Below are positions 14,123 through 16,758 of a stretch of 64,000 nucleotides of DNA, piece after piece. Source of the DNA: Escherichia coli (GTDB taxonomy: Bacteria > Pseudomonadota > Gammaproteobacteria > Enterobacterales > Enterobacteriaceae); NCBI RefSeq assembly GCF_046105845.1, contig NZ_CP151004.1; one strand, written 5' to 3'. Numbering within the stretch: the stretch's first letter is position 1; each line of letters opens with the position of its first letter. The position numbers and the translations under genes were made by a program. The notes beneath the pieces are model-generated. The model did not search any database and was not told the origin of the DNA. It saw only the letters and a list, made by a program, of their open reading frames with translations.

Positions 14123-14336
14123 AGCAGTACCTCCTTCACAGTGGCGAGCTTCCTGTATAACGCAAAAATGTGACGGAGATCTATATTTTTTGTGTATGTT
14201 TTGTTCAGCTCAATTAAGTGGGCATCTCCCATCAACGTCGCATCTGACAAAACATACAGCCAAAAAAAATCACCCATTCAGGTGATTCCCAGCCACCAGC
14301 AATGCGCGAAAAATCGACAATGTTCCTCTGGAACAA

Positions 14337-14615
14337 ATGAAACGTAACCTGATAAAGGTGGTAAAAATGAAGCCTTATTTTGCTGCTTTGATGTTATCAG
14401 TCTCTGTTCTTCCTGCTTATGCTGGTCCGCTCGGTACTGCTGATAAAGCCGACCTACCGCAAAGCAATGTCTCCAGCCCAATGATGGCCCAGTCGCTCAG
14501 GCAACCAGACCTGCAACCGATATCGACGGACAGGAAGACAGAATGTTTTCGCCTTTACACACCAGATCGCAAACCGGGGGTGAACTGCGTTCCTGATGGC
14601 TCAACAGGCCATTAA
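14337..14615 (+). CDS. yjbT: Small secreted protein with signal peptide (yjbT-like)
   Basis: 92-aa ORF; internal ATG at 14367 has an AGGTGG Shine-Dalgarno and opens a signal peptide MKPYFAALMLSVSVLPAYA; gene name from memory and unverified. Confidence 0.5.
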   Translation: MKRNLIKVVKMKPYFAALMLSVSVLPAYAGPLGTADKADLPQSNVSSPMMAQSLRQPDLQPISTDRKTECFRLYTPDRKPGVNCVPDGSTGH

Positions 14616-14661
14616 GAATGAGGGTGCCAGTGAGTGCGAAAACTGGCACCTTTTCCAAGAC

Positions 14662-16758
14662 TTAGCGGAAATTGACGCTACGGTCGCTGGTCATGTCATA
14701 CAACTGGAACTTACGCCCAAGTTGCTGACCACCGTCACGCGTCAGCGGCGTCCAGCCAATTGCCGCACGGCTGCGTGTCGGGCCAGACGAGAAGAGATCC
14801 AGCGGTACAGAGACATACACGCCTTTGGTAAAGTCCCCTTCGCCGTACTCCTCTTTCGAAACATTCGTGATCGTGGCATAGCCACCCACCACCACGCCGC
14901 TATCAAAGCGTTTGGCGATCTCCAGCGTGCCGCCTTTATCCCCTGCCAGATACTGCCCGACGCTCGCTTTCACTAACACATCCTGAGCGAAAGATGGCGT
15001 CCAGTATGCGGTCAGATGTCCGGTTTTCACGCTGTAGTCGGTGAATTTCATCATATCTTTTGCGCTACGCCAGTCGCGCTGTTTAACGTAGTTGGCATCC
15101 AGACCAAACGCCCAGTTGCTGTCCAGCGGGCGATACAACACTTCTGCCCCCGCACCGCCAAACATGGTTTCGAGATAACCACCGTAGACCTGACCGTAGA
15201 AGCCGTTGCCCAGATGCTGGAAGTAGTTGGCTTGCAGGTTATTCACATAGACATCGTTCTGCACATACTCGCGCACATGGGTACGAACGCGCGGTAAGTG
15301 CGAGTCCTGCGGCGGGTTGGTGTAGTTAAACTTGTCGTAGTTGTTGGCAAGATTTGCAAACAGGCTGCCGGTGGTGAGCAGATGGTCCGTCAGCCATACA
15401 TCCGCCGTTCCCATCACGCCCAGCTGATACATGTAAAAGTTTTCCGGGCCACCGACCGACTGGTTCAGCACCGGATCGATATGGAAATCAAAGCGTGATT
15501 TGTCGATATACCAGCCCTGCTCGGTGGACTGCGGAACCACTGGCTCGACGCGTTTTTGCGCCAGCGTCGTTTCGTGGCCCAACGGCTCTCCGCCGAGATG
15601 ATTTTTCAGGCTGGCGACATCGGTTTCCGTCGTCACCTGCGGCATGTTAAGGCGATTTTCCGTAATGCGGATCGTTTTGATCCCATCCGGCAGATCGTTC
15701 ATCACGATCCGATTAGCACGGATGATCCCTTCGCGCGAATCACGATATTTCACCTGCTCGCCGGTAACATACAGCGTATCGCCTTTCGCCTGGATCTGCG
15801 GATCGGCCAGTCCGGCGTTGTATTTCAACAGCGTTAACTGATTCGCCACCACCGAGTGCTGCAAAATGGCATCCTGCGGCTGCGGTTGATATTGCGGGCG
15901 GGCGTTATCGTTGTAAGACGGGCGCAGATCGTTAAAGTTGGTGCGCAACGTAACGCCAAACATAAAGGTGTTGCCACGTTCATAGCTAAGGTTAACGTCG
16001 GCCCAATCGGTAACGCGATAAATCGCACCGACGTTAAACTTACTTTTTTGCTCCAGCTTCCCGGCAAAATCCTGCTGATAATTATTGCCTTCATACTCCA
16101 GTTTCAGGCGCAGCGGTTGCCAGGGCGTCTGGTATTCCACGCCGCCAAACAGTGAGGTCGGGCCGTGGAACATCTGGCTACCGTCGATAGATCCCGCCTG
16201 TTTGTAGCTGTTATCGCGATAGCAAAATTTATCACTGGCTGAACAGAGCGGATTTTTCACATTACCGCTGGTGCCCAGATATCCCCAGCCCAGGCCGAGC
16301 GTAAAATCGAACGGCCCCCAGGCTTTGCTGGCAACAAGATATTCCGCATCAAACAGCCCCGTACCGCCGATATCCCGCGCACCAACCGCCACTTGCGGCA
16401 GCCAGTAACTCTCTTCCCACAAACGCAGTTTGAGATCGAAGGCTTTATCTTTATACGTTTGATCACCAGAGAACGCTTCGACGCTGCTGTACTGCCGGGT
16501 GCGCACATCGGTATAGCGCAGCGTTGTTTCCAGCCACGGGAAGAGTTGCACTGAAGCTGAGTAATAACGGTACTGATCGTTATCGCGATAGTTCAAACTC
16601 AACTCCCCTTCCCGCGCCATGCGGGCGGTAGGCGTTTGTAATAATCCTACGCCACCGAAATCCGACTGCGACGGACCAATGGGCGCAGGATATGTTTCGC
16701 CGTAGCAAGCTGTGCTAATGCCCAGCGCCAGTAAGCTAAGCAGATGTCTTTTTTTCAT
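14662..16758 (-). CDS. yjbH: Outer-membrane lipoprotein of the yjbEFGH exopolysaccharide-associated operon
   Basis: 698-aa ORF with signal/lipoprotein N-terminus [20 protein letters not shown]; last gene of the operon. Confidence 0.85.

Follow-up and report, generated by a model that had tools for sequence, protein, structure and literature searches.

yjbT of Escherichia coli, an already catalogued gene for a predicted periplasmic protein: a constrained cysteine module, a probable start-codon correction and conserved upstream elements

Between psiE and yjbH on the Escherichia coli chromosome lies a short open reading frame, for which one has to ask whether a small exported protein is encoded there and, if so, where its translation starts, which part of it is under selection and what its role may be. 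In the window analysed here (a stretch of 64,000 nucleotides of E. coli chromosome), the ORF listing gives this frame on the + strand from the ATG at 14337 to a stop codon ending at 14615 (92 aa), and a second in-frame ATG, at 14367, would give a product of 82 aa; the first-pass annotation of this DNA, which had pointed to an ORF of 82-92 codons at 14337-14615, is in agreement with both starts. The flanking genes psiE (13712-14122; PF06146, PsiE) and yjbH (14662-16758; PF06082, YjbH) are both on the - strand, with xylE (12193-13668, + strand) as the neighbour beyond psiE. According to the annotated regions, the frame is divergent from psiE and convergent with yjbH, in the same position as yjbT (b4620) of K-12, for which the gene order yjbG > yjbH < yjbT (PMC9962212) and the intergenic pair b4620/b4030 (PMC3734233) are given. 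The frame had also been said to sit in what would otherwise be read as a promoter region; the arrangement shows that this is not the promoter of the yjb operon, the last gene of which, yjbH, runs towards the ORF, and that only psiE is divergent from it.

The identity of the frame is clear. In an exact-sequence look-up the 92-aa product equals, in every residue, the UniRef entry YJBT_ECOLI ('Uncharacterized protein YjbT'), and it belongs to Pfam family PF17089 (YjbT), which it matches from end to end (protein 1-92 on model 1-92 of 92; 217.7 bits, E 1.4e-65, for a curated gathering threshold of 27 bits), with no Pfam match other than this one. RefSeq holds the same product as WP_001295279.1, a 'periplasmic protein' placed between psiE and yjbH both in the best-matching strain and in a K-12 derivative. 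The name yjbT, which had been offered with hesitation, is settled by these matches: the ORF at 14337..14615 is yjbT (b4620), already catalogued in the K-12 annotation, UniProt and Pfam. Of 5426 complete E. coli genomes, 5416 contain the 539-bp psiE-yjbH segment, and the remaining ten have no match to it at all. As a gene call the locus adds nothing; yjbT is uncharacterised, yet present in nearly every E. coli strain, and in the literature the terms 'yjbT' and 'b4620' were found in gene lists and tables only, with no functional study. The residual value of the analysis lies in a probable correction of the start codon, in the definition of a Cys-loop module and in conserved elements upstream of the gene.

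Some variation surrounds this otherwise constant locus. The gene xylE lies between malG and psiE in the window and in K-12, and is absent in the E. coli strains Ecol_316 and EC42405; since the psiE-yjbH spacer of Ecol_316 is 100% identical to that of the window although xylE is missing, the presence or absence of xylE is polymorphic and independent of the yjbT region. In EC42405, a rare variant, yjbT itself is absent, and a psiE-yjbH gap of ~120 bp (L003 4001-4120) contains another hairpin (GCCGAATACGATTCCTGTATTCGGC). Additionally, three frameshifted variants of the gene (P0012, P0013 and P0014) leave the frame midway through the protein and then regain the conserved C-terminal motif; one of them, P0014, comes from Shigella flexneri, as would fit the decay of yjbT to a pseudogene in genomes of the Shigella type.

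Whether the frame is translated can be addressed through its substitution pattern. Over the last 25 codons, the comparison of E. coli with a homolog from a Kluyvera-like lineage (L004), in which dS is saturated, gives 18 synonymous changes (of 18.7 possible) and 0 non-synonymous ones, and the comparison with Kluyvera georgiana gives 14 and 1, respectively; in the middle region of the protein, pN between genera is ~0.5. Because the pattern of 18 synonymous and 0 non-synonymous changes needs a translated and selected frame, yjbT is, judged from its codons, a genuine coding gene under strong purifying selection, and because the pattern is concentrated at the C-terminus, the functional part can be placed at T58-H82 (numbering of the 82-aa form). 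A lack of frame conservation in relatives had been one of the two points on which the first-pass annotation could fall, the other being a missing signal peptide; the frame is kept, under purifying selection, in other genera, and the signal peptide (see below) is present as well. The range of the family is small and patchy (Escherichia, Kluyvera with K. georgiana, Pseudocitrobacter, Buttiauxella and Shimwellia). Its size (14 clusters in a set of 5.8 billion proteins, and 13 representatives in one of 1.84 billion) is what one might expect of a chance reading frame upstream of psiE from which no functional protein is made, as is the finding that AlphaFold2 (AF2) gives no fold for the product and that protein-level data for YjbT were not found (the accessible ribosome-profiling, N-terminomics and transcript-mapping supplements contain no proteomic, translation or N-terminal record of yjbT). 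Such a chance frame is, nevertheless, scarcely credible: it would have to go through saturated divergence with not one non-synonymous change in the C-terminal module, and to retain reading frame, signal peptide, Shine-Dalgarno sequence and terminator across five genera in differing genomic contexts, and the ORF is 70-150 bp away from the psiE promoter region conserved between genera. The substitution pattern effectively refutes it.

The psiE-proximal part of the spacer (~14140-14200, CTGTATAACGCAAAAATGTGACGGAGATCTA...) is conserved in Kluyvera, Pseudocitrobacter and the P0015 lineage, and is clearly separate from the elements of yjbT. It contains CRP-like and Pho-box-like sequences, which we take to be those expected of the psiE promoter.

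If yjbT is a coding gene, the question becomes which of the two ATGs is used. Upstream of ATG 14367, at a distance of 5 nt, lies the sequence AAGGTGG (14355..14361, + strand), the strong Shine-Dalgarno noticed in the earlier reading, whose duplex with the 3' end of the 16S rRNA (-8.5 kcal/mol) is equalled or bettered by just 2.3% of the 947 + strand ATGs in the window. It is part of a ribosome-binding block (CTGATAAGGTGGTAAAAATG, 14350-14369) that is nearly invariant across genera. The duplex of ATG 14337 reaches just -3.3 kcal/mol, a value equalled or bettered by 32% of the window ATGs, and this ATG is located 1 nt past the stem of a hairpin, and the stem holds the only GGA that it has. Besides, all homologs outside Escherichia are 75-85 aa long and start at the equivalent of Met11 (MKxYF...); the upstream ATG is found in Escherichia only, being absent from Kluyvera, Pseudocitrobacter, Buttiauxella and the other homologs, and in Kluyvera a 1-nt indel relative to E. 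coli lies between the positions of the two ATGs. Because the homologs from other genera start at the Met11 equivalent and the Shine-Dalgarno duplex is the stronger one, we take ATG 14367 as the main start, so that the product would probably have 82 aa and the database model would be 10 codons too long; the ten codons MKRNLIKVVK (14337..14366, + strand) that this model includes are then probably 5' UTR.

The annotated 92-aa product, which would start at ATG 14337, with a signal peptide whose n-region is long and highly basic (MKRNLIKVVKMK...), is the reading of UniProt and RefSeq, and we consider it unlikely. In its favour, ATG 14337 is found in each of the five sequences examined from Escherichia species, the ten upstream codons show one synonymous and one non-synonymous change within that genus, and the assembled RNA 5' ends (14315-14330 in four conditions, discussed below) lie upstream of this ATG. 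The nucleotide conservation of the stretch is, however, explained by the ribosome-binding block, which is shared with homologs that do not have the ATG, and the weak duplex, the hairpin and the Kluyvera indel also argue against it. A minor 92-aa precursor may exist besides the preferred 82-aa form, given the conservation of the upstream ATG within Escherichia. Whichever start is used (14337 or 14367), the mature YjbT is identical.

Export of the product was evaluated with a rule check for Sec/signal peptidase I substrates (positive n-region; h-region with ~10-15 hydrophobic residues; small neutral residues at -3 and -1; no Pro at +1), and the N-terminus of YjbT has all of these sequence features. 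The 19 codons MKPYFAALMLSVSVLPAYA (14367..14423, + strand), followed by GP, encode a positive n-region, a hydrophobic core (best 10-residue Kyte-Doolittle mean of 2.37) and A-Y-A at -3 to -1, and form the sole helix in the AF2 model. The signal peptide ending in AYA that had been described from the sequence is thus the canonical pattern, and its kind is kept in every homolog: in all 13, the net charge of the n-region is at least +1, the 10-residue Kyte-Doolittle maxima are 1.5-2.7, and an A/V/S/C-x-A/S cleavage site ends at residue 19 or 21 (AYA, AFA, AHA, VFA, VYA, SYA, AFS, CYS or CYA), although the signal-peptide sequence itself diverges. From the pattern rule and from this cleavage motif, YjbT most likely carries a cleavable Sec-type signal peptide. 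The alternative class of bacterial lipoproteins (signal peptidase II) was rejected, since a lipobox ([LVI][ASTVI][GAS]C) is absent from the signal peptides of the 13 homologs; the first 59 residues of E. coli YjbT do not include a Cys, and the signal-peptide Cys of the Buttiauxella and Shimwellia proteins is preceded by a Pro, which is incompatible with a lipobox. The predicted mature protein has 63 residues, a mass of 6.8 kDa and a pI of 6.7.

This mature protein is divided into two very different regions. Residues 20-57 of the 82-aa form (14424..14537, + strand) are the variable middle region with the pN of ~0.5 mentioned above, in which AF2 finds no secondary structure (pLDDT 53-58) and which is probably disordered. 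The C-terminal module, TECFRLYTPDRKPGVNCVPDGSTGH with the stop codon (14538..14615, + strand), is the one with the 18/0 and 14/1 counts, and it contains both Cys of the mature part, for which the earlier count of exactly two holds true: Cys60 (14544-14546) and Cys74 (14586-14588), each invariant in the ten aligned homologs. The other invariant columns among these ten are T58, P70, G71, N73, P76 and D77, and the near-invariant motif of the module can be written as T-x-C-x13-C-[VI]-P-D. The AF2 model as a whole, based on the ten-sequence alignment, has a pLDDT of 57 and a pTM of 0.14, with the signal-peptide helix as its only defined element and an undefined structure at the C-terminus. No remote homologs were obtained from NCBIfam, PADLOC, PHROGs or the PDB sequence profile, and a profile search against 1.84 billion representatives returned nothing beyond family members and fragments. 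The number of conserved Cys in the predicted exported part of YjbT is even, as in the sequence criterion for DsbA substrates. From what is established on oxidative folding in the periplasm, one would expect DsbA to join this invariant pair and so to close a loop of 13 residues. The 25-residue Cys-x13-Cys module is very strongly constrained, with the rest of the mature YjbT free to vary.

The same three-part layout (signal peptide, unconserved spacer and near-invariant Cys-containing C-terminus) would fit a pre-pro-peptide, in which the variable region is a pro-segment and the disulfide loop of 25 residues would, once freed, serve as a signal, as a toxin or as an inhibitor of proteases; the precursors of the heat-stable enterotoxin STa have a comparable layout, and in Escherichia and K. 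georgiana (P0009/L012) two basic residues in a row (R-K or R-R) stand in front of the module. We find this very unlikely. A closely related homolog (P0008) has H-V in place of the basic pair, which is not conserved in the other homologs either (DHV, SHV, ELN and QYN), no gene for a processing enzyme or an exporter adjoins yjbT in any of its contexts, and YjbT has no similarity to known peptide families.

How the gene is expressed was approached by aligning the 120-200 nt located 5' of the start in eight homolog loci. Three conserved noncoding blocks (14269-14286, 14321-14335 and 14350-14369) accompany yjbT across genera and into unrelated neighbourhoods (beside a GH1/PTS cluster in L004, beside csbD in L016 and beside a DUF2767 gene in L019). 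The first is an 18-bp palindrome, ATCACC-N6-GGTGAT (14269..14286), preceded by a run of eight A (14262-14269), which has no second exact match in the 64-kb window and is a candidate protein-binding site. It is kept in the eight loci, including three non-syntenic ones, with a fixed arm spacing of 6 nt (some arms being imperfect), and its distance to the second inverted repeat, which lies downstream, stays constant at 32-34 nt. That repeat, TGTTCC-TCT-GGAACA (14321..14335, + strand), is also kept in the eight loci, and because its loop varies in length among them, we favour a hairpin, probably a 5' stem-loop of the yjbT mRNA, over a site for a dimeric protein; the stem forms in the minimum-free-energy fold of 14315-14372. 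Covariation is too weak here to tell an RNA hairpin and a DNA site apart: 86.5% of the cells of both inverted repeats are paired and 2 pairs change on both sides, as they do in 28-48 of 500 shuffles.

A putative -10 element, AAAAAT (14309..14314, + strand), precedes the hairpin, and a similar nAnnnT-like hexamer is seen by eye 4-8 nt 5' of the hairpin in most homolog loci; no good -35 element is present, TTCCCA abutting the palindrome. Directional RNA-seq detected transcription of b4620 in seven of seven conditions, and in four of these the assembled 5' ends map to 14315-14330 of the window (PMC3734233), as ends of read assemblies and not as single-nucleotide TSS maps. This fits a promoter whose transcript would start at the hairpin and whose palindrome would be centred near -43, a typical activator position. 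A consensus promoter and terminator scan of 14050-14750 called nothing at the thresholds used, Rfam had no match in 13600-14900, and a literature search on the palindrome sequence returned nothing relevant. A sigma-E promoter (GGAAC ... (T/C)CTGAT) was considered and rejected: its spacer would be 11 nt instead of ~16, and the resulting transcript start would remove the Shine-Dalgarno sequence. We know of no consensus site for sigma-54, sigma-28, CRP, FNR, NtrC, RcsB or LacI/GntR-type regulators that fits either repeat. On the - strand, the palindrome followed by U8 gives a terminator-like hairpin (14255-14300; -14.8 kcal/mol, z = -3.9), and a 61-nt opposite-strand fragment of K-12 (4238095-4238155) ends at this T-run (PMC3734233); the hairpin may shield psiE against read-through in antisense, or indicate a short RNA transcribed divergently. 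The conserved palindrome and 5' hairpin are a new but minor observation, and their travelling with yjbT points to a dedicated regulator.

One could go further and see in YjbT the precursor of a disulfide-looped effector peptide (the 25-mer), periplasmic or secreted, which acts on a conserved target in the envelope or in the host and is controlled by a dedicated palindrome-binding regulator; we regard this combination as quite unlikely.

The psiE-yjbT spacer differs in length among strains. In K-12-type genomes a REP/BIME-like insertion (GCCGGATAAG...GCGCATCCGGCA) between the two genes makes it ~55 bp longer (L002 3087-3200) and ends just upstream of the palindrome; the window strain has a different short sequence in its place (~14208-14262). 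The 47-aa 'hypothetical protein' WP_000487766.1, which RefSeq draws across the K-12 repeat, is probably spurious.

At the other end of the gene, where the stops of yjbT (14615) and yjbH (14662) face each other, the hairpin that separates them is a probable terminator (14620..14653; -19.7 kcal/mol, z = -2.8), which the consensus terminator scan left uncalled, its T-run being short. A GC-rich hairpin follows the stop codon in eight of nine homolog loci, with none obvious in the Shimwellia locus (L022). In K. georgiana, a 151-aa ORF (L012 5377-5832) lies between yjbT and yjbH, where Escherichia has none, and in a related locus (L007) yjbT has beside it another 151-aa ORF, which matches Pfam Hexapep (hexapeptide-repeat transferase).

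With its own upstream elements and its own terminator hairpin, and with other contexts in L004, L016 and L019, yjbT appears as an independent unit, and this bears on its relation to the neighbouring genes. An accessory role in the YjbEFGH exopolysaccharide export system is suggested by the adjacency psiE-yjbT-yjbH, kept in Escherichia, K. georgiana, Pseudocitrobacter and the P0015 lineage, and by the prediction of both YjbT and its neighbour as envelope proteins. Membership of a YjbEFGH or Gfc-type operon was rejected, yjbT being on the opposite strand and the linkage being broken in L004, L016, L019 and L022; in Buttiauxella, Shimwellia and the L004 lineage, the gene has unrelated neighbours. 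A functional tie to yjbEFGH is likewise unsupported, because yjbT is convergent with yjbH and has a promoter region and a terminator of its own, a gene is inserted between the two in Kluyvera, the family occurs elsewhere in 3-4 lineages, and EC42405 keeps yjbEFGH without yjbT; we consider the accessory role improbable.

The mechanism that we propose, and that we hold to be probable, is that of a free-standing monocistronic gene encoding an exported protein. Its mRNA would begin at ~14315-14321 with a small 5' stem-loop, and translation would most likely start at ATG 14367, giving an 82-aa precursor that is exported via Sec and cut by signal peptidase I after Ala19 (AYA/GP). The result would be a soluble periplasmic protein of 63 residues and 6.8 kDa, whose N-terminal 38 residues may be a fast-evolving, probably disordered linker or flexible spacer, and whose last 25 residues would be the functional part. 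There, DsbA would join the two invariant Cys, 13 residues apart, into a disulfide-closed loop, and this loop may bind a conserved partner in the envelope.

Among known systems, the closest is the K-12 YjbT (b4620; PF17089, 'Uncharacterised protein family YjbT'), with an identical protein, the same chromosomal position and a full-length match to the family model; the window strain differs from K-12 in not having the ~55-bp REP-like insertion between psiE and yjbT. As an analogy of layout only, the STa precursors (~70-80 aa) have a Sec signal peptide, a poorly conserved middle and a conserved Cys-containing C-terminal peptide that depends on disulfide formation in the periplasm. YjbT, however, has no sequence similarity to them and has two Cys where STa has six, and yjbT is chromosomal and near-universal in E. 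coli, whereas the STa gene is plasmid- or transposon-borne. Other Sec-exported envelope proteins of Enterobacteriaceae whose role is uncharacterised or linked to stress, such as the YhcN/DUF1471 family, are, like YjbT, small, monocistronic and of narrow taxonomic range, with a cleavable signal peptide; they have a folded domain, whereas YjbT is predicted to be largely disordered.
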